Assembly (NCBI GenBank): GCA_963675245.1 | Contig: OY775910.1 | Coordinates: 960,001 to 1,024,000 of the forward strand | Source of the DNA: Acholeplasmataceae bacterium | GTDB lineage: Bacteria; Bacillota_I; Bacilli_A; Acholeplasmatales; Acholeplasmataceae | DNA: 64,000 nt | Direction: 5' to 3' | Shown here: positions 6,175 to 36,619 of the stretch, piece after piece | Position numbering within the stretch: the first letter of the stretch is position 1 | Layout of the letters: each line of letters begins with the position of its first letter | Made by a program: the position numbers and the translations under genes | The notes under the pieces: generated by a model | The model's input: only the letters and a program-made list of their open reading frames with translations | Database searches by the model: none | Told to the model about the DNA's origin: nothing

Positions 6175-8677
6175 AAAAGCCGCCTTCAGCTTTTTGTTTG
6201 CTTGGCGGAATCTAAGTGCACATCCTTTTAGAACACTTTTATTGATGATAGGTTTTCTAGGTGTTTCCATCACGATATTGATTTCAATTTCGATGAATGA
6301 TTTGCTGTATACTTATTATTATGGAAATCAAATAGAAACGTATCAAGATATCGATTTAAAAGTCGCGGTTGATAATGATAGTAGTTCTCGCTTTTTTAGA
6401 ACAACACCGCTTCAAAGTTCTAATATAGATGAATTTACGGATGGCATCTATCCGTTTTTTGAGTTTGATGTTCTTACACAAATCACAGAAGAAGATCGTG
6501 TTTATGTGCATGTTTTTGCATCATCAATAGATATGCTATCACATCTATCAAATCAACATATACAAACAAGTCAATTAGCAAATAATGAAGTCATTATTAC
6601 ATCCTCATATGCAAATGCTCATGATTTAAGTATTGATAATCAAATTTTATTACAAGCGGGTCAAGAAGAGCGTTATTTTATTGTGAAGGAAATTCTTGAT
6701 GATGGAAAATTATTCACCGGTCATAGTATCTTCATTGATAAACAATCTTCATTTTCTTTTTTCTTAACGGCATTAGATCCAGCTTTAGCAGAATTCCCGC
6801 CTATTTTATTAACGAATATTTACAGTGTGCTTTATGTTGATATCAAAGATGATGTGACGGTTAGTGAGGGTATTACAGCATTTAAAGCAATTAACGAATA
6901 TGAATCGCTAGATTATATTAAAGCGATTGATGACGTCGCGATTAATCAATTAATCAACCGAAATATTGCTTTAGTTAACGCACTATTAAGCCTTGTGTTT
7001 ATCGCGATTATATTTGTTTTACAAACGACACTCAATGTCTATTTTCACGAGCGAAAAGCAAATGCTGCAACCATTCATGTGCTTGGTGGACGATATCGTT
7101 ATGCATTTGGTATTTTAGGTATAGAAATCTTTTTTCAACAAGCTATCGCATTTATTATTGCAGTGATTACGACAAATATTAGTTTCAAAATCGGCATGAC
7201 CTATTTATCATCAGCATGGATTTATCAATTAACAGTTGATCGCATACTTATGGCGTTAGGTATAACGCTTGTTGTAATACTATCTATGTTTGCATATTAT
7301 GCATACCGTTATATGAAATCAGTTGATATGACACTTATTAGACGCATTGGTAATGAAAGACGACTAAATATGAAAGCACATATCATCATCGCACTTATGA
7401 GTTTATTACTTTATGGTGTGAGTTATTGGCAAATGTTAGTTGACCTGTTCGGTCATACGTTAAGTCTATTTAGAATTTTATTTGTGGCTTCATTCCTATT
7501 ATCATTTCCATTTTTTATTTATGATCTATGTGTTCACTGGTTATCTAAATATAAAGAACGAAAAAAAACGTATTATCATATGAAGATTTTTTCTGGCAAA
7601 AAAGGTTTTTCTCTATATTTTTCGATGACACTAATTGTCTCACTCATTATTTTCTTGCTCGTATTCATGATCCAACATTTGAATCAAAGAGAAGAAACGT
7701 TCGCAAATGAATATCAGTTTGATATGATTGTCACAAGAATGACAGGTAACGAAGAGACAATCTATCAAGATATTAATCATATGGACAATGTAGAACATGC
7801 AAACCGAGCAGATATTTATGATGCAGTTGAAGTACCTAACCAAGTGCTCAGTATTGATTATGTGATCTCAATGGATATTTATGATATTCAAACATATTTT
7901 GATTTTGTAGATCTTGAAGATCAAATCGTTCGGTTAAGTCAGAAATTAGAATCATCTATTATATTACCAATAAGGTATAAGGAAATATTTAACTATCAAG
8001 TCAATGATGTTGTCGTCTTAACACTTAATCCCGATATACCTGAACAATCATTTATCATTGCAGGATTCTTTGAAAAGCAAGGACTTGATGTCGCTTTTAC
8101 GAATCTTTATATGATTGATCAGGAGGTTCAAGACAACGCAAATAGTATTTTGATTACAGCAAAAGGAGATCGACATATTCTTTTTAATGATCTACTGGAT
8201 TCGTATAGTAAACAACTTGTCGTTGTGATTGATTTTAAGACGACGTATGTTGATGTATATGTATCCCAAATGAATCTAGTTAAAAATTTTATTATCGGTT
8301 ATATATTAGTATTAATTGCATGTTTTATTATGACGTTATCCAATCATCAAACGATGTTAAATATGACATTAGAAGCGGATCATGCGAGAATGTTAGCTAT
8401 GGGATATGGATATCAAGAATTATCCAAGGATACGATAAAATCAGATATGATGATATTAAGTTTGATGTTATTTGTATCCACTCTTAGCTACCTACTCATA
8501 TTTGATCAAATTAAGGGATTGTTTTCAGCCTTTGGAGCTTATGAATCGATTCGCTTTAATGTGACATCAATCTTTATTGGTATAAGTATCAATATTGTTC
8601 TATATATTGTATTGATAACGATGAGAATATTAAATGAACGAAAATTAAACATTAGTAAATATTTACGAATACTTTGA
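6155..8677 (+). CDS. FtsX/MacB-like ABC permease (duplicated architecture)
   Basis: AWRNL...RTLLLMIG N-terminus, two extracytoplasmic loops alternating with TM bundles; follows a LolD-like ATPase. Confidence 0.82.
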   Translation: MMKRWFKKAAFSFLFAWRNLSAHPFRTLLLMIGFLGVSITILISISMNDLLYTYYYGNQIETYQDIDLKVAVDNDSSSRFFRTTPLQSSNIDEFTDGIYPFFEFDVLTQITEEDRVYVHVFASSIDMLSHLSNQHIQTSQLANNEVIITSSYANAHDLSIDNQILLQAGQEERYFIVKEILDDGKLFTGHSIFIDKQSSFSFFLTALDPALAEFPPILLTNIYSVLYVDIKDDVTVSEGITAFKAINEYESLDYIKAIDDVAINQLINRNIALVNALLSLVFIAIIFVLQTTLNVYFHERKANAATIHVLGGRYRYAFGILGIEIFFQQAIAFIIAVITTNISFKIGMTYLSSAWIYQLTVDRILMALGITLVVILSMFAYYAYRYMKSVDMTLIRRIGNERRLNMKAHIIIALMSLLLYGVSYWQMLVDLFGHTLSLFRILFVASFLLSFPFFIYDLCVHWLSKYKERKKTYYHMKIFSGKKGFSLYFSMTLIVSLIIFLLVFMIQHLNQREETFANEYQFDMIVTRMTGNEETIYQDINHMDNVEHANRADIYDAVEVPNQVLSIDYVISMDIYDIQTYFDFVDLEDQIVRLSQKLESSIILPIRYKEIFNYQVNDVVVLTLNPDIPEQSFIIAGFFEKQGLDVAFTNLYMIDQEVQDNANSILITAKGDRHILFNDLLDSYSKQLVVVIDFKTTYVDVYVSQMNLVKNFIIGYILVLIACFIMTLSNHQTMLNMTLEADHARMLAMGYGYQELSKDTIKSDMMILSLMLFVSTLSYLLIFDQIKGLFSAFGAYESIRFNVTSIFIGISINIVLYIVLITMRILNERKLNISKYLRIL

Positions 8678-30383: not shown

Positions 30384-30405
30384 AAAAAAGCCTAGTGGCT
30401 TTTTT
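30384..30405. terminator. Bidirectional terminator (nrd operon / original tRNA-Gln 3' end)
   Basis: AAAAAAGCC-tagt-GGCTTTTTT with A and T runs on both sides. Confidence 0.75.
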
Positions 30406-30415
30406 ATTTTTAATA

Positions 30416-30459
30416 TGGCAGGCCCAGCAGGATTTGAACCTACGGTGAGGGAGTCAAAG
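30416..30459 (-). repeat. att site: displaced 3' half of tRNA-Gln(TTG)
   Basis: TGGCAGGCCCAGCAGGATTTGAACCTACGGTGAGGGAGTCAAAG matches 35226-35269 at 41/44 nt; the 5' half of the tRNA is absent here. Confidence 0.93.
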
Positions 30460-30475
30460 CCCCGATAGGTAGATT

Positions 30476-30501
30476 AAGCACTCAATGATGAGTGCTTTTT
30501 T
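30476..30501 (+). terminator. Intrinsic terminator just inside the left att site
   Basis: AAGCACTCA-atga-TGAGTGCTT plus T run. Confidence 0.8.
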
Positions 30502-30508
30502 GTTCTCA

Positions 30509-30722
30509 TGGGCCTTAATCACAGCAAAGGGATATAAGACTTCTTTCCTCCCCCCCACAAAAAAAGAATTATTGTTCAGTTGCTGTGATTAAGGCTCACC
30601 TCTAGACTTTTTCTCACTATTGGTGAGTCAATAAAAAACGGCTAAAAAATGCGATTTGATAAGGCTCAATAGTTGGTTTCTTTGCCGTTACCATTCTGTT
30701 GAGTCGTATCAAGTCGCTTTTT
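30509..30722 (+). ncRNA. Candidate structured RNA leader of the rep gene
   Basis: 19-bp helix 30509-30527/30580-30598 and a long hairpin 30651-30717 + T5. Several non-Watson-Crick pairs are G-U on the + strand. Confidence 0.55.
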
Positions 30723-30741
30723 GCTAAAAAGGAGTTTTATT

Positions 30742-31593
30742 ATGGCTAAGAATGATAATACAAAATATTGGTGGATAAAATTGGAAACAAACTTTTTTTA
30801 TCAAAATGCAATTGACTTTTTAATGTCTCAAAAGAATGGAAGTAATTATGTTGTTTTATATCAAATGTTATGTTTGAATTCTGCGAATACACAAGGTCGA
30901 TTAGAGCAAAAAATAGGCGATATGATAGTCAAATATGATGTTGCCAAAATTCAACGCGACACAAAGTATTTTGATCTTGACACCATTAGAGTAGCTTTAG
31001 AATTATACAAAGGATTAGGGCTTGTTTATGAAGAAAAGGACGGTACACTATTAATCATAAATCATGATGAAATGGTTGGATATAAAACCGGTGGTGCAAT
31101 ACGAAAAGAACTTGCAAGAAAATCAAAGAGGGACAATCTAGGGACAAATGTCCCCAAGAGTATAGAGTTAAGAGATAAGAATAAAGATATTAAAGATAGA
31201 GATTTAATAACACCCCCTAAATCCCCCAAGGGATATGTGAGTGATAATAAACTTAAAGAAAATATCTCTATTCAATCTCAATTTGATTTATTTTGGAAAG
31301 AATATCCAAAACACATAAATAAGCAAGCTTCTTATGAGCAATTTAGAAGTATGAAGTTAGATAATGGTATGTTAACTACGCTAATAGAGAATCTCAATAA
31401 ACAAAAAAAGTCTATTGAGTGGTCGCGTGAACAAGGTAGATTTATACCTTCGCCGCAAAAATATTTAAAAGGTAAGTTATGGGAAGATGAGCTAACTTAT
31501 CAAATAACAGTTGGTCAACTAGGTGTTGATGAAGAAATAGAACGTCAAATGGATAATATATTCAAAAAACTACCATTTGGCAAAGGGGCATGA
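30742..31593 (+). CDS. Phage replisome organizer (replication initiator)
   Basis: N-terminal KYWWIKLETNFF..AIDFLMSQKNGSNYVVLYQMLCL (Phage_rep_org_N-like); C-terminal FDLFWKEYPK..GRFIPSPQKYL..WEDE; AAGGAG SD. Confidence 0.88.
   Translation: MAKNDNTKYWWIKLETNFFYQNAIDFLMSQKNGSNYVVLYQMLCLNSANTQGRLEQKIGDMIVKYDVAKIQRDTKYFDLDTIRVALELYKGLGLVYEEKDGTLLIINHDEMVGYKTGGAIRKELARKSKRDNLGTNVPKSIELRDKNKDIKDRDLITPPKSPKGYVSDNKLKENISIQSQFDLFWKEYPKHINKQASYEQFRSMKLDNGMLTTLIENLNKQKKSIEWSREQGRFIPSPQKYLKGKLWEDELTYQITVGQLGVDEEIERQMDNIFKKLPFGKGA
31129..31232. repeat. Probable replication origin inside rep
   Basis: AGGGACAA x2 at 11-bp spacing plus inverted TGTCCC, followed by a purine-rich AGAGAT/AAAGAT tract and two CCCCC motifs. 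Confidence 0.55.
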
Positions 31594-31784
31594 AAATGGG
31601 AAATGATGACATAAAAATTGGAAAAGTTGTGACTCAAAAAGAAACTAATCGAGAAGCTAGAATATATGACATTGATAAAAGTATTAATTATGTGTTTTTG
31701 CTTGTCAACATTGGTTATCAAAATAATGAAGTTGCGACAGTTCAAATAAAAGAATTCTTCGATTATTATGAAACGAGGTCATGA
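31590..31784 (+). CDS. Small hypothetical protein (element)
   Basis: ATGA overlap with the rep stop codon; 64 aa; no recognised motif. Confidence 0.6.
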   Translation: MKMGNDDIKIGKVVTQKETNREARIYDIDKSINYVFLLVNIGYQNNEVATVQIKEFFDYYETRS

Positions 31785-32358
31785 TATGTTTGGAAAAGAA
31801 AAAAAGCATACTTTAAGAACGAAAGTAATTACAGTTATTCATTCTGAAATTGTTGGTTTTAATAAAAAAGGTTTAGCAATTACAAAACCTCGAAAACGAA
31901 TGTATACTTTTTATGGCTCATCATTTAAAGATTTAAGGCTAAAGATAATCGCATTTAAAATTGATAATTATTTGAAATATGACACACGATTAAATGCCAA
32001 TACTGAGTTCAAAAGAGATGTGCGTTGTTTAGGTAAGAAGAGCAATGTAAAAGTAATGTTTTCATATGATTTTCAAGATAGGTACAACGCTATTAACTAT
32101 TTGTTATCAAAATATAATATTTCAGATAATCAAAGTATCGAGAAAAAAGATATCAAAAATAAAATTATCAAAGAAATCAATTTCGAATCACAAGGAAATG
32201 TTGATTTAGATTTACTGCAGATTGTTAGAATCGTGTATAAGTGTTTTGACTTCGATAAGCACAAAACAAAGGGGTTTTTGATGTCAAAAGATGGTGGATA
32301 TACACCGAGAGAAATAACACATGCGTTCAATAAATTAAGTAAAGAGGTAACAATATGA
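31768..32358 (+). CDS. Basic hypothetical protein (element)
   Basis: 196-aa Lys-rich ORF in the operon; the start could be ATG 31786 (GAGG SD). Confidence 0.7.
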   Translation: MKRGHDMFGKEKKHTLRTKVITVIHSEIVGFNKKGLAITKPRKRMYTFYGSSFKDLRLKIIAFKIDNYLKYDTRLNANTEFKRDVRCLGKKSNVKVMFSYDFQDRYNAINYLLSKYNISDNQSIEKKDIKNKIIKEINFESQGNVDLDLLQIVRIVYKCFDFDKHKTKGFLMSKDGGYTPREITHAFNKLSKEVTI

Positions 32359-32708
32359 TTTCAATGAATATAATGAATATCAATAATCAAATCAAGTCTT
32401 TATTAAGCCATATAAATATTTATTCTTTAAAACGTGAAAAAGCGTTTGAAATCGTTCGTGATTCCATTAGAGATGACATGGGAAAGATCTCAAGATTTGG
32501 AGCAGTGCGCACATATAGATTAGCTTTTGAATACTTTCAAAATGAACCAATAACAGATTGCTATATGCTTTCAGAATTCGAAGGATACACGAGATCGGAT
32601 ATTAAACAAATAAAGTATCAAATGAATAGGAGAATAAAAGTGTTTTCTGAAAATGTGACAAGTCAACATCAAATTAATCAAATATTAAAAATTGTTGGTT
32701 GGGACTGA
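32355..32708 (+). CDS. Hypothetical protein (element)
   Basis: GAGGT SD, ATGA overlap with the upstream ORF; 117 aa. Confidence 0.7.
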   Translation: MISMNIMNINNQIKSLLSHINIYSLKREKAFEIVRDSIRDDMGKISRFGAVRTYRLAFEYFQNEPITDCYMLSEFEGYTRSDIKQIKYQMNRRIKVFSENVTSQHQINQILKIVGWD

Positions 32709-32852
32709 ATAGTACAATATTAATAAATAGTTGATGTGCGTCGTAGAATATTTTATTATAAATATATGTTCATATTCCATATGAACTATATTATATAAAA
32801 CATCTCAATCCTATTTCATAATGTGATAAAATACATTTAAGGTGGGGTTGAG

Positions 32853-33236
32853 ATGAAAAGAACTTATATTTATGAGTCAATTGACAAGAGAAAAGGTGAA
32901 ATTGATTTTTATTATGAACATCACTATTATTCATTTAAACATGTTATGAATAACCGTAAACGGATTTTAAAACTGATTGATTTAAAGTGTAATACCGACC
33001 ATGTTAAATGGGATAAAAACCCAACAGATGAGGAGATAGCGTTTATCCTAGATATGTCATCAATCAACTTATCTAGAGTTATCAATGGTAGAGTCTCACT
33101 TTCAGTTGATGTGTTATTAAAACTATCCTGGTTTTGTGATGTGTCAACGGATAAGATAATTGCTTTTGAAAAAGAATTGGGTCATATAATAAAAAATAGT
33201 GATTTAATTGATTTTGATATCCTCAAGGAGACTTGA
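32853..33236 (+). CDS. XRE-family HTH protein
   Basis: EEIAFILDMSSINLSRVINGRVSLSVDVLLKLSWFCDVSTDKII; AAGGTGG SD. Confidence 0.78.
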   Translation: MKRTYIYESIDKRKGEIDFYYEHHYYSFKHVMNNRKRILKLIDLKCNTDHVKWDKNPTDEEIAFILDMSSINLSRVINGRVSLSVDVLLKLSWFCDVSTDKIIAFEKELGHIIKNSDLIDFDILKET

Positions 33237-33246
33237 GGTTTTTTTT
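33221..33246 (+). terminator. Intrinsic terminator upstream of the integrase
   Basis: CCTCAAG-gaga-CTTGAGG plus T8. Confidence 0.8.
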
Positions 33247-33345
33247 ATGTACATTAAATCTTAACATTGATGATAAAATAACAAAGTCAAAATTAAACAG
33301 ATTTAACGTGGCATATTAAACTAAAAGAAAATCAATTATAAAGGA

Positions 33346-34227
33346 GTGTCAACAATGCTATTCACAGATTTATTTAAGAATTATTTGGAGTATAGTTTAC
33401 TACACAAAGCAAGAGGAACTTATGATTACGAGAGAGCGAAGATAAATAGGCTTAATATCGTTTTGAACGATATGGGTGTGATTGATACCACTCGATTTGA
33501 CAGAAACGCTCTAAATCGCCTCATTTTATATCTTAAAACGAATATTAGTAATAAGACGATTAATAAATATTTACTAATTATGAAAAATGCTTATAAAATC
33601 AATGATCTTGACTTTGAATATCTACAAAAGTTTAAAAAATTAAGAGAGAATAAAGTTCACTTTGAAATTATTGACAAAAATGAACTTAAAAAAATAATTA
33701 ATTGGGCATTGAGATTAAAAAGCAATCAAGATAATAACTTAATGTATCAAACCATTATTTTTTTATTACTGGAAACGGGTGTTAGAGCAAATGAGCTAAT
33801 AAACATTGAAATAAAAAACATAGATTTAGAGAATAAGTCTATACTTTTAACCACTACGAAAACAAAAAAGAACAGACTTGTATTCTTTACAAATTTATCA
33901 AAAAAATATATTGTAGATATGATTGACTTGGGACCGAAGAATCGCAAGTTTTTGCTCTTTAATAGATTAAAAAAAAGACAAACGCTATTTAGAGATATTA
34001 AATATACGATTGATAAGATTAAGCACGAAACTAATATCATAAAATTGCACCCTCACATGTTTAGACATACATTCGCAACACTAGCTTATGAAAATGGTAT
34101 GGATGTCTTTGTTTTAAAAGAGTTATTAGGACATGAAAATATAGAAACAACAATGATTTATACTCACATTTCTGAAAATAGATTAAATCAAACATATAGG
34201 AAGGCATTTGAGAACGATATATTTTGA
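33346..34227 (+). CDS. int: Tyrosine recombinase/integrase (Xer-like size)
   Basis: TGVRANEL (R), TKTKK (K), [11 protein letters not shown] (HxxR), [13 protein letters not shown] (H, Y). Exact start uncertain (GTG 33346 or ATG 33355). Confidence 0.94.
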
Positions 34228-34295
34228 ATAACTGTGTATAAGAGTACATTAAAGTACATTAAAGTGCAAAAAAATGCTTAAAAAAGTAAAAAAAA

Positions 34296-34325
34296 TTGTA
34301 CTTTTCCACAATATTTTGTTATAAT
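34296..34325 (+). promoter_or_regulatory. Promoter of candidate antisense RNA
   Basis: TTGTAC-18 bp-TATAAT with extended TGn. Confidence 0.7.
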
Positions 34326-34330
34326 ATGTA

Positions 34331-34392
34331 TGTAAACTTTGTGGCTATGCACACAAAAAGAAAAAGAGGTTTTAGAGGAACCTCTTTTTTTT
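34331..34392 (+). ncRNA. Candidate ~60-nt antisense RNA against the yjzC-like mRNA
   Basis: Lies between a promoter and a terminator with no ORF; the first 28 nt are repeated (26/28) at 34671-34698 in the oppositely transcribed leader. Confidence 0.65.
34361..34392. terminator. Bidirectional terminator shared by antisense RNA and yjzC-like mRNA
   Basis: AAAAAGAGGTT-ttagagg-AACCTCTTTTT with A runs before and a T run after. Confidence 0.8.
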
Positions 34393-34441
34393 CCGAAACT
34401 TTCAATCATCAGTGCTGTGATTTAAACGGATTTAATTAAAA

Positions 34442-34624
34442 TTATTTTGTATGTTTGGTCGGATCAACTAAAACATAAATCTGATTTGGCTTGGGTGTTG
34501 GAGGTACTTTGTTGCCTTTTATTAGGGTTACCTCGTTCTGAGATATACGACCGTTTGAAAAACCTATCGCATACTGTCCAGAAACATCCGTAATTTGACC
34601 ACTTTTTATTGTATGTTTTGTCAT
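34442..34624 (-). CDS. YjzC-like small protein (60 aa)
   Basis: KSGQ...SGQY...EVTLIKGNKVPPTPKPNQIYVLVDPTKH pattern recalled from YjzC-family proteins; GAAAGGTGG SD. Confidence 0.75.
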   Translation of the reverse strand: MTKHTIKSGQITDVSGQYAIGFSNGRISQNEVTLIKGNKVPPTPKPNQIYVLVDPTKHTK

Positions 34625-34670
34625 TTGCAAATTCCACCTTTCTTATAAAATTATTTATAAGCAAGATGAC

Positions 34671-34698
34671 TGTAAACTTTGTGGCTATATACACAAAA
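34671..34698. repeat. Direct repeat copy 2 (copy 1 at 34331-34358)
   Basis: TGTAAACTTTGTGGCTAT-at/gc-ACACAAAA, 340 bp apart. Confidence 0.95.
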
Positions 34699-34742
34699 CC
34701 GTTTCGGAAATCAACAAATAATCATGTCTAAATCACAACAAC

Positions 34743-34771
34743 ATTATAACATAAATAAGGCGATTTGTCAA
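34743..34771 (-). promoter_or_regulatory. Consensus sigma-A promoter of the yjzC-like gene
   Basis: Minus strand TTGACA-17 bp-TATAAT with extended TG. Confidence 0.88.
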
Positions 34772-34856
34772 TGTTGAGCTGATATTGTCAATACTCGTAT
34801 TAAAAATAAAAAAGTAGTAATAGTAATAATTTTCCAGATAAAAAAAGAACGAACAT

Positions 34857-35072
34857 TTATTGCTCGTTCTTTTTATCATCATCTATTAAACCGAGTAAAT
34901 AATCTGCTGAACATTCAAGAACCTTAACAAGATGTCTTATTTGCTCTTCATTCAACCTGTAAACACCATTTTCATAGTTGGAAACATTGCTTTGTGGGAC
35001 ATCTAAAATCTTTGATATTTGAACTTGTGTCAAACCCTTTTTAATTCTTGCCTCTTTAAGTTTGTTACTCAT
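34857..35072 (-). CDS. XRE-family HTH repressor (71 aa)
   Basis: LKEARIKKGLTQVQISKILDVPQSNVSNYENG...SADYLLGL; AGGAG SD. Confidence 0.92.
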   Translation of the reverse strand: MSNKLKEARIKKGLTQVQISKILDVPQSNVSNYENGVYRLNEEQIRHLVKVLECSADYLLGLIDDDKKNEQ

Positions 35073-35097
35073 ATTAACACCACTCCTCATTTTAATG

Positions 35098-35126
35098 TTG
35101 ACTCCTGTATCGCTTTGAGCTATAAT
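35098..35126 (+). promoter_or_regulatory. Outward-facing promoter pointing at the right att site
   Basis: TTGACT-17 bp-TATAAT, divergent from xre. Confidence 0.8.
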
Positions 35127-35225
35127 TAAGGTGTTAAGGAAATATTGCTTTAAGCGATATTCAACGGTTAGAGTGCTTAATCATGATGTCACTCGTTCAT
35201 ATTCAAACGGCTTGTATAATTAGTA

Positions 35226-35299
35226 TGGCAGGCCCAACAGGATTTGAACCTGTGGTGAGGGAGTCAAAGTCCCTTGCCTTACCCCTTGGCTATGGGCCT
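35226..35299 (-). tRNA. tRNA-Gln(TTG), integration target
   Basis: AGGCCCA/TGGGCCT acceptor stem, AGGGA-CTTTGAC-TCCCT anticodon arm, GGTTCAAATCC, CCA. Confidence 0.96.
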
Positions 35300-35569
35300 G
35301 TATGGCTAAACAGGTGAATATACTTTTAAAAGGAGAGATATATTTTTAGTTCAGCATTTATGATTTTAGCATAATGTTAATCAAAACTCAACTATAAAAA
35401 GCGATAAAATAACTGTTAAGTTATATTACCCTAATTTCTAATGGATTTATTCATCTAAAATTACACTATAATATGTGATATGATGTATATCAAACATTTT
35501 TAGATAAATGGGTTTATAATAAAAATATGAAAGCGTTTTATATTTTTGTTAAAGGAGATATGAATAGTC

Positions 35570-36619
35570 GTGAAGATGACAGCGGTTATTAAAGACAAGA
35601 AAGATGTAGGATGCAAGGTCGTTGAGAAAGAAGTACCAGAAAAATTGGGGGAAAAAGATGTTTTAATCAAGGTTTTGGCGACCTCTATTTGTGGTACAGA
35701 TGTCCATATTTTTAAGTGGGATAAATGGAGCCAAGGTAGAGTGAAACCACCGAATATTATGGGACATGAATTTGCAGGTGAAGTCATAAAAATCGGTTCT
35801 GAAGTAACAAAAGTTAAAATCGGAGATATTGTATCTTCTGAAACACACATTGTATGTGGTGAATGTGAGTTCTGCAAAAGAGGAGAATACCACATATGTG
35901 AAAACACAAAAATTATCGGTGTAGATATTGATGGTTGTTTTGCTGAATATATTAGAATGCCTGAGTTTAATTTAATCGTGAACAACAACGGTATTGATCC
36001 TAAGTATTTATCGATTCAAGAACCACTTGGTAATGCCGTTCACACCATGTTGCATTTTGATATCAAAGACAAAGATGTTGCAGTTATAGGTTGTGGACCT
36101 ATTGGTTTAATGGGAGTCAATATCGCTAAAGCAGTTGGCGCGAAAAAAGTGATTGCTATTGAAATTCAACCATACCGTATAGCGATGGCAAAAATGTTAG
36201 GTGCTGATGTTGTTATAAACCCTCGTGAAGAAGACGTTGTTAAGCGTGTATTAGATGAAACAAATGGTAAAGGTGTTGATGTCATAGGAGAGTTTTCTGG
36301 TAACGAATTCGCGATCGAAGCTGCATTTAAATATATTAAACGTGGTGGTAAAATGGCGATGCTTGGTATCACGCCTGATAACGTGACATTTGATATTTCA
36401 AATGATTTTGTATTTAAAGGAATTACGATGTATGGTGTTGTTGGTAGAATATTGTTTGATACGTGGGATAAAGTCGGCTATTTGATTGACAACCATATGT
36501 TGGATTTAGATAAAATTGTGACACATGTCCTACCACTTGAAGAAGTTGAAAAAGGTATGGAGATTATGATGTCAGGACAGAGTGGAAAAGTAGTATTAAT
36601 ACCAAATCATAAGGAGTGA
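35570..36619 (+). CDS. tdh: L-threonine 3-dehydrogenase
   Basis: [42 protein letters not shown]; paired with kbl. Confidence 0.95.

Follow-up and report, generated by a model that had tools for sequence, protein, structure and literature searches.

We analysed a stretch of 64,000 nucleotides (nt) from an Acholeplasmataceae bacterium (assembly GCA_963675245.1, contig OY775910.1, positions 960,001-1,024,000 of the forward strand; hereafter the window), in which a transfer RNA (tRNA) gene, tRNA-Gln(UUG), houses a 4.8-kb integrative element. A direct repeat of 62 nt with 87% identity (30402-30463 and 35212-35273) marks the two ends and contains an identical 16-nt core (30444-30459 and 35254-35269). 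As in tRNA-integrating elements with a tyrosine integrase, an intact tRNA gene was found at one end, a partial copy of its 3' half (about 30417-30463) at the other, and the integrase gene within. The T-arm sequence of the left copy is that of the tRNA-Gln of a genus relative (locus L062), and three T-arm positions of the right copy differ from the left one; the left copy is therefore taken as the displaced host half and the right copy as element-borne, which fixes how the ends are joined in the excised circle. A preliminary description of this DNA had proposed that excision assembles a promoter and an antiterminator across the joined attachment site (attP), so that the replication operon of the element is expressed only from the circle. 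Within the reach of computation, the analysis reported here supports this switch interpretation.

The two ends carry matching halves of a potential RNA structure (Table 1). At the right end, the predicted promoter P_out is directed out of the element, and its hexamers and 17-nt spacing are identical in two related elements, L001 and L017. Downstream of it lies a palindrome that is likely an operator, and operator-like repeated sequences occur at the equivalent place in L001, L062 and L064. Past the palindrome, the predicted transcript contains a 12-mer, the right inverted repeat (IR-R). At the left end its exact complement, the left inverted repeat (IR-L), covers eight of the nine nt of the 5' arm (AAGCACTCA) of a predicted intrinsic terminator, T1, and extends 4 nt upstream of the stem. 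The positions that the preliminary description had given for the consensus promoter, the pair of 12-mers and the 9-base-pair (bp) terminator all hold. In the window GAGTGCTTAATC occurs exactly only twice, at IR-R on the + strand and at IR-L on the - strand; with up to two mismatches there were 7 matches versus 5.1 expected, only the exact pair standing out.

The claim that P_out has no gene to drive stood in part: the promoter does lie at the element end and point outward, but an open reading frame (ORF) of 44 amino acids (aa; 35183-35317) begins directly after IR-R, and a host zinc-dehydrogenase-like gene (35570-36619) can be reached, no + strand terminator being predicted between P_out and that gene. 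The 44-aa ORF has no ribosome site visible by eye and no counterpart in L001. If derepressed in the integrated state, P_out could transcribe antisense tRNA-Gln and the dehydrogenase-like gene.

Table 1. Features of the tRNA-Gln(UUG) element, with positions in the window
Feature	Position	Strand	Basis or remark
Displaced host-derived 3' half of tRNA-Gln(UUG), attL side	30417-30459	-	last 16 nt (30444-30459) are the core common to the right copy
IR-L, GATTAAGCACTC, proposed 3' strand of antiterminator helix	30472-30483	+	exact complement of IR-R
Intrinsic terminator T1, proposed insulator	30476-30503	+	predicted; stem 30476-30497 of 9 pairs, 4-nt loop, then U tract TTTTGTTCTC
Hairpin H1, rep leader	30509-30598	+	19-nt arms, 95% complementary
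T2, terminator-like hairpin (30651-30717) with U run TTTTT	30651-30722	+	20 nt before rep start
Replication operon	30742-32708	+	replisome organiser gene rep and three small ORFs
Replisome organiser (rep)	30742-31593	+	PF09681, phrog_5968
Three small ORFs of the replication operon	31590-31784, 31768-32358, 32355-32708	+	ORF list
Weak helix-turn-helix protein, 127 aa	32853-33236		protein family search
Tyrosine integrase, Xer-like, two domains, 293 aa from GTG start	33346-34227	+	PF00589
62-aa ORF	34442-34630	-	ORF list
XRE-family repressor-like gene, 77 aa, divergent from outward promoter	34857-35090	-	PF01381 at 1.4e-12; phrog_8, phrog_3
Outward promoter P_out, TTGACT-17-TATAAT	35098-35126	+	predicted; 11/12 consensus positions
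Palindrome AATATTGCT-TTA-AGCGATATT	35141-35161	+	about +9 to +29 of predicted transcript
IR-R, GAGTGCTTAATC, proposed 5' strand of antiterminator helix	35171-35182	+	about +39 of predicted transcript
Intact tRNA-Gln(UUG)	35226-35299	-	tRNA prediction and Rfam; 3' half 35226-35253 element-borne; core 35254-35269

The circle was built in silico by joining the ends at the shared core, with the transcript start assumed 7 nt after the -10 hexamer, and transcripts of the left end (attL side) served as the integrated form for comparison. On the P_out transcript of this circle the two 12-mers are 99 nt apart, matching the earlier estimate of about 100 nt on one RNA, compared with 4.7 kb when integrated. 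The fold of this transcript, a check named in the preliminary description, preferred the 12-bp helix over the terminator: the minimum-energy structure contains the helix, with the antisense tRNA segment enclosed by it as a domain, and the probabilities (P) of the helix and of T1 were 0.91-0.98 and 0.02-0.08 respectively, whether the RNA ended at the terminator or at the rep start. The integrated left-end transcript, on the other hand, kept its terminator (P(T1) of 0.95).

How often such a complement arises by chance was estimated with 20,000 dinucleotide shuffles of the promoter-side arm (137 nt in the window). Perfect complements that reached the observed length, at least 12 nt in the window, and shared 6 nt or more with the terminator 5' arm turned up in 2 of the 20,000 shuffles for the window and in 0 of 20,000 for L001. 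Moreover, shuffled promoter-side arms kept the terminator (median P about 0.95), and P(terminator) dropped below 0.5 in only 3 (window), 1 (L001), 5 (L064) and 3 (L062) of 200 shuffles each.

Five element sequences at tRNA-Gln genes were reconstructed, namely those of the window, L001, L017, L064 and L062 (two further loci, L018 and L010, represent the DNA of L001 once more and are left out of the count). All five have the layout of promoter, helix and terminator, with four distinct helix sequences (12, 17, 16 and 12 nt). Covariation among related elements, which the preliminary description had also put forward as a check, was thus observed: four unrelated helices in five sequences, with the arrangement kept. 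In our judgement this comparison is the strongest part of the case.

The nearest element, L001, belongs to an uncultured Mariniplasma genome, and its integrase is 59% identical to that of the window; the relatives place the host in the Acholeplasma/Mariniplasma group. L001 has a promoter TTGACT-17-TATAAT at 7745-7773 and a terminator at 2275-2300, and its 17-nt inverted repeat, CGAGTGCTTACTGTATA, is also that of L017. Compared with the window repeat, 9 nt are common and the extension upstream of the terminator stem is altered on both sides; IR-L extends 8 nt upstream of the stem in L001 and 4 nt in the window, and such an upstream extension fits the need of an antiterminator to nucleate first. 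The terminator stem of L001 differs from that of the window by one compensatory change, A-T to G-C. Between its right repeat and the core L001 has an extra whole tRNA-Gln(CUG) gene, which yields a 169-nt loop; on its circle transcript P(helix) was 0.99 and P(terminator) 0.00, compared with a P(terminator) of 0.97 when integrated. For L017, a metagenomic variant of L001, the circle values were 0.96 (helix) and 0.00 (terminator). L001 and L017 show no difference in the 43 columns of helix and terminator stem; elsewhere 36 of the 202 columns in the right arm and 87 of the 297 in the left arm differ. As a separate observation, the tRNA-Gln(CUG) gene in the attP arm of L001 is duplicated in the lysogen (7850-7923 and 2122-2195), and its two copies differ at two positions.

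The insertions L062 and L064 were found through partial tRNA-Gln copies in genus relatives. Both have an XRE gene (the proteins are 30-32% identical to that of the window), an outward promoter and a terminator just across the core. In L064, where the predicted promoter is weaker (9/12 plus TG), GTACCTATTAAATATG and CATATTTAATACGTAC pair at 15 of 16 positions, and in the fold the helix runs on beyond them; on the circle most helix pairs had probabilities of 0.94-1.00 and P(terminator) was 0.04, versus 0.945 when integrated. In L062, whose integrase is 37% identical to that of the window over the C-terminal 194 residues, GATTGTTAAATT and AATTTAACAGTC form 12 pairs, including one G.U; P(helix) was 0.93-1.00 and P(terminator) 0.003 on the circle, versus 0.92 when integrated. 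The G.U pair of L062 is strand-specific, as it becomes an A.C mismatch on the other strand.

Two further insertion details were recorded. L062 (154-4620, genome G165) is a 4.5-kb tRNA-Gln element with a tyrosine integrase, a serine resolvase and a 579-aa protein without a family match, and its outward promoter is predicted to read across the joint first antisense through a 161-aa cargo gene. L064 (4179-7459, genome G171) is a 3.3-kb tRNA-Gln insertion whose repeat consists of the tRNA 5' half and the region upstream; no integrase was found in this insertion, which contains two adjacent HNH-like ORF fragments.

In a 4x4 in-silico exchange of arms, all four cognate combinations lowered P(terminator) to 0.00-0.08, while all 12 non-cognate combinations left it at 0.86-0.97. 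As to geometry, in all elements the first nucleotide of IR-R falls at +36 to +39 of the predicted RNA and IR-L overlaps the terminator 5' arm, whereas the distance from IR-R to the crossover core is 87, 166, 15 or 49 nt and IR-L lies 12, 3, 40 or 24 nt beyond the core. A fixed position relative to promoter and terminator combined with a variable distance to the core fits a device acting at the level of the transcript, not a fixed nucleoprotein architecture. Moreover, the stretch from the terminator to the rep start contains no + strand promoter-like site (at least 9/12) in either the window or L001, whereas a promoter of rep downstream of the terminator would, according to the preliminary description, have spoken against the switch.

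Together these results lead us to propose, with a probability of roughly 0.65, that a split attenuator assembled by site-specific recombination controls the replication operon. In the integrated state the operon, lacking a promoter of its own, would be shielded from incoming transcription by T1 just inside attL, while P_out, probably held in check by the XRE-family protein, would sit at the far right end and point out of the element. Excision would join the right end to the left end, and the P_out transcript of the circle, if it starts where assumed, would run through IR-R, the antisense tRNA segment of attP, IR-L and then the 3' arm of T1. IR-R would pair with IR-L before the T1 3' arm is synthesized and thereby sequester the 5' arm; with T1 disarmed, RNA polymerase would continue into the rep leader. 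Expression of rep would thus require derepression of P_out as well as excision, and the presumable purpose would be that no replication begins while the element is integrated. We also lean, if only slightly, towards a wider view: that recombination-assembled, two-piece RNA attenuators act as AND gates for replication or recombination genes, with a private helix in each lineage, and may be common in small tRNA-integrated elements well beyond this family.

Several observations weigh against this proposal: i) the sample is small, with five sequences and four helices from one bacterial family, and window and L001 share 9 helix nt; ii) the genes beyond the junction are not rep in two cases, being recombinases behind the antisense cargo gene in L062 and split HNH-like ORFs in L064, and therefore the regulated target is not always replication; iii) in the window the energy margin is only 1.7 kcal/mol (-50.1 versus -48.4 with either helix enforced), compared with 3.1 to 7.2 kcal/mol in the other elements; iv) before IR-L is made, IR-R is partly held in transient structure (mean P(unpaired) 0.32-0.56 across elements and 0.41 in the window), so that kinetics may or may not bear out the model that thermodynamics favours; v) a host terminator (30384-30405) lies upstream of T1, so that a need for insulation at the site in the window is not evident; vi) the terminator-like hairpin T2 stands between T1 and rep, is not touched by the junction helix and is the main unexplained feature. 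The rep leader is about 240-320 nt long and highly structured. Its hairpin H1 has positional equivalents in L001 and L017 with compensatory changes, and the base of the T2 stem (GCGATTT/AAGTCGC) and its U run are conserved in both, again with compensatory changes in the stem. By eye, no partner able to pre-empt T2 was found in the promoter-side leader. Expression of rep may need further input beyond the junction helix, and T2 might act as another attenuator, serve as an operator for Rep or be a structure of an origin.

Other explanations of the same anatomy have to be weighed. The inverted repeats might be bound as DNA by a protein, be it the integrase, a regulator or an accessory recombination or directionality factor, that shapes the attP complex or loops the circle, the overlap with the terminator being secondary. 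Lambda-like attP sites have short arm-type repeats in both arms, and here too short repeats lie in both arms, within about 100-170 bp of the crossover; counting the terminator 3' arm there are three copies of an 8-9-mer, and the 127-aa helix-turn-helix protein and the 62-aa ORF provide small DNA-binding candidates. A further point against the attenuator is that sequence alone cannot separate an inverted DNA repeat from an RNA helix, only the one G.U pair and the geometry favouring RNA. However, lambda-type arm binding by the integrase is unlikely since the protein has two domains and aligns over its full length with XerC: residues 12-288 correspond to positions 5-290 of a 295-position XerC model, PF00589 (residues 109-278) is the only family matched, the remainder has the size of one core-binding domain, no N-terminal arm-binding domain is present and the best solved relatives are two-domain recombinases of the XerC/XerA type. 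The repeats also differ from lambda arm sites in being single in each arm and in standing at no fixed position from the crossover core, the several-fold variation in that distance contrasting with the fixed promoter and terminator positions. The preliminary description, which had considered arm-type sites less likely, is borne out by both the integrase and these distances. Moreover, the terminator 3' arm lacks the upstream extension of the repeat, L064 retains the design though no integrase was found there, the L062 pair matches only as G.U, and the elements contain no further copies of the repeat (in the window, a single 10/12 match inside int). Protein sites seem to us unlikely, though their probability is not negligible.

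If the long-range RNA helix does form, it might serve otherwise, as a processing site, as a stabilising 5' domain or as a clamp that hides the antisense-tRNA segment, with T1 weak or irrelevant. In every fold the helix closes a self-contained antisense-tRNA domain, and T2 shows that the leader has additional unexplained structure; yet in 5/5 sequences the 3' strand of the helix shares nucleotides with the 5' arm of a hairpin that has a U tract behind it, an overlap that stabilising or processing would not need, and helices of 12-17 bp fall below the length of typical RNase III substrates, which are longer. We regard such a role as decidedly unlikely. P_out, for its part, might have its main role while the element is integrated, driving flanking host genes or producing an antisense RNA to tRNA-Gln, the complementarity being a by-product of how the ends originated. 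The lack of a predicted + strand terminator before the dehydrogenase-like gene would suit this, but flanking host genes differ between elements, and no reason would be given for four independent helices each matching its own terminator; this account is highly improbable. Coincidence in AT-rich DNA has in its favour that the 5.7-kb region has other perfect inverted repeats of 12-17 nt, such as one of 17 nt at 30399-30415 and 34798-34814. Given the shuffling results and the recurrence of the arrangement in all five sequences, it is scarcely credible.

The proposed device resembles known attenuators in form and differs in what makes the choice. The trp, pyr and T-box leaders form mutually exclusive hairpins in which the 3' strand of the antiterminator overlaps the terminator 5' arm and extends upstream of it, and in classical attenuators a ribosome, protein, tRNA or ligand picks the hairpin. 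The elements described here likewise have a terminator with a U tract and an upstream segment complementary to the 5' arm and its 5' flank. No sensor was recognized: there is no conserved leader peptide (the 44-aa ORF being absent from L001), and among Rfam families only tRNA matched in the region. Unlike in the trp, pyr and T-box leaders, the choice would be set by whether both halves lie on one DNA molecule. An outward promoter, or promoter half, that is productive only after circularisation is also known from the junction promoters of IS911 and IS30, from Tn4451 and from Pcirc of ICEclc, which drives intB13, and P_out would be productive after circularisation in the same way; to our knowledge none of these has an RNA antiterminator split across the joint. 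The sib element of phage lambda lies downstream of int, works through RNase III and mRNA decay, is negative and acts on un-integrated phage. Here as there, recombination at att would decide whether a regulatory RNA structure shares a transcript with the gene it controls, but the device of the window lies upstream, concerns termination and would be positive. Both circle-specific promoters and sib are more remote analogies than Tn916.

In Tn916, an insulator terminator (T1), a promoter (Porf7) and an antiterminator (canT) have been demonstrated experimentally (Wirachman and Grossman 2024, PMC11658703). According to that report, the terminator stands just within one end and precedes the DNA-processing and replication genes, with the promoter and antiterminator at the opposite end, facing outward. 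Only in the circle do they come together, by which the host is protected against the element replicating in its integrated form. The report describes canT as about 452 bp long, processive, active on heterologous terminators and thought to modify RNA polymerase, and its authors suspect similar systems in other elements. The likeness to the elements described here lies in coupling expression to excision, in shielding it from host read-through and in a terminator and promoter that meet only in the circle: the window, L001, L062 and L064 each have a predicted outward main promoter across the joint and a predicted intrinsic terminator just within the opposite end, ahead of the genes to which the joint leads. 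A processive antiterminator for heterologous terminators, as canT is described there, did not emerge in silico, in view of the arm exchange (cognate 4/4, non-cognate 0/12) and of T2, which is left untouched. Unlike canT as described there, the antiterminating part would be a strand of 12-17 nt specific to one terminator, in a promoter-side leader of 68-218 nt upstream of the att core; and unlike Tn916, the element is a 4.8-kb non-conjugative one that encodes a Xer-like, tRNA-specific integrase along with a replisome organiser of phage type.

The general logic of excision coupling was already published for Tn916 in 2024 (PMC11658703); relative to it, the new part would be a terminator-specific hairpin split across attP, of which full-text literature searches found no description, returning only that paper and a 2026 preprint on Tn916. 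Excision-coupled expression protects the host chromosome from replication begun inside an integrated element, and the ways in which elements achieve such coupling are known in detail for very few. If the proposal is true, a very small element of a little-studied bacterial group would reach the same end as Tn916 by a minimal and transparent device, the mechanism of canT being still unclear. It would also provide a signature for annotation: a promoter facing outward, followed at a fixed distance from the start site by a short stretch complementary to the first terminator beyond the joint. With such a signature, small integrative elements and phage satellites could be searched for their ends and their regulatory state. 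In addition, the private helices point to a natural set of orthogonal, recombination-gated switches.

Searches for further relatives gave a limited yield. With the integrase as query, genome contigs returned 2 loci, one of them close, and metagenome contigs 4 loci (two of the L001 lineage and two at 28% identity); a single-protein search of viral contigs gave no match, and the 29 loci from an alignment search of viral contigs had identities of 24-26% and were left unused. Order-wide, 24 of 307 genomes had integrase matches at E <= 1e-40, those besides the window and L001 genomes having E values of 1e-42 to 1e-61 and resembling a paralogue in the window's own genome, L021; class-wide, 4 of 400 genomes matched at E <= 1e-62, three of them foreign (L069-L071) and covered by listings of their ORFs and tRNAs. 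Matches to the rep protein were found in 6 of 172 family genomes, including that of the window (G000); among the matching loci were L010 and those in G047, G053, G051 and G064. The left-end DNA pattern had no match in viral contigs. The outward-promoter pattern beside a tRNA-Gln 3' end was found in 3 of 172 genomes (G165, the L001 genome G100, and G078) in a scan that excluded the 80-110 nt spacing fitting the window itself; G078 was rejected by eye as ordinary host context. Partial tRNA-Gln copies in G081, G065, G071 and G131 were set aside as contig ends or uninformative. At a tRNA-Cys locus of G166 no repeat was found within 12 kb, and at the G170 locus (L063) an integrase gene lies a few kb from tRNA-Gln, with no partial tRNA copy among the copies listed. 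Separately, the family draft assemblies G081, G065, G071 and G074 (L101-L105) have contigs that end inside tRNA-Gln(UUG); such breaks may mark further insertions of a like kind that the assemblies leave unresolved.

Some observations concern the element itself and its integrase. The very small element may be a phage satellite or else an integrative replicon of plasmid-like type. Its integrase comes closest, among phage records, to the one of Plasmavirus L2, with 37.6% identity over 62% of the length. Assembled contigs of four sequencing runs from one study carry the element in integrated form in 3 of 4 cases, and no joined ends were seen in them. The paralogue L021 (8407-9279; G000:C1:128407-129279) encodes a 290-aa Xer-like protein that is 35% identical to the element integrase; as a comparable element it was set aside, since it lies in a long run of same-strand genes and the only tRNA in the 18-kb stretch, a tRNA-Lys, is ~6.5 kb away. 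Lastly, two direct copies of a 36-nt sequence (86%), palindromic at its core, lie at 34323-34358 and 34663-34698. One copy lies in a 5' untranslated region behind a predicted promoter at 34771-34743 (- strand; 12/12 consensus plus a TG extension) that faces the 62-aa ORF, and the other lies just past the terminator of that ORF; the two copies may be an operator pair or an antisense RNA target.

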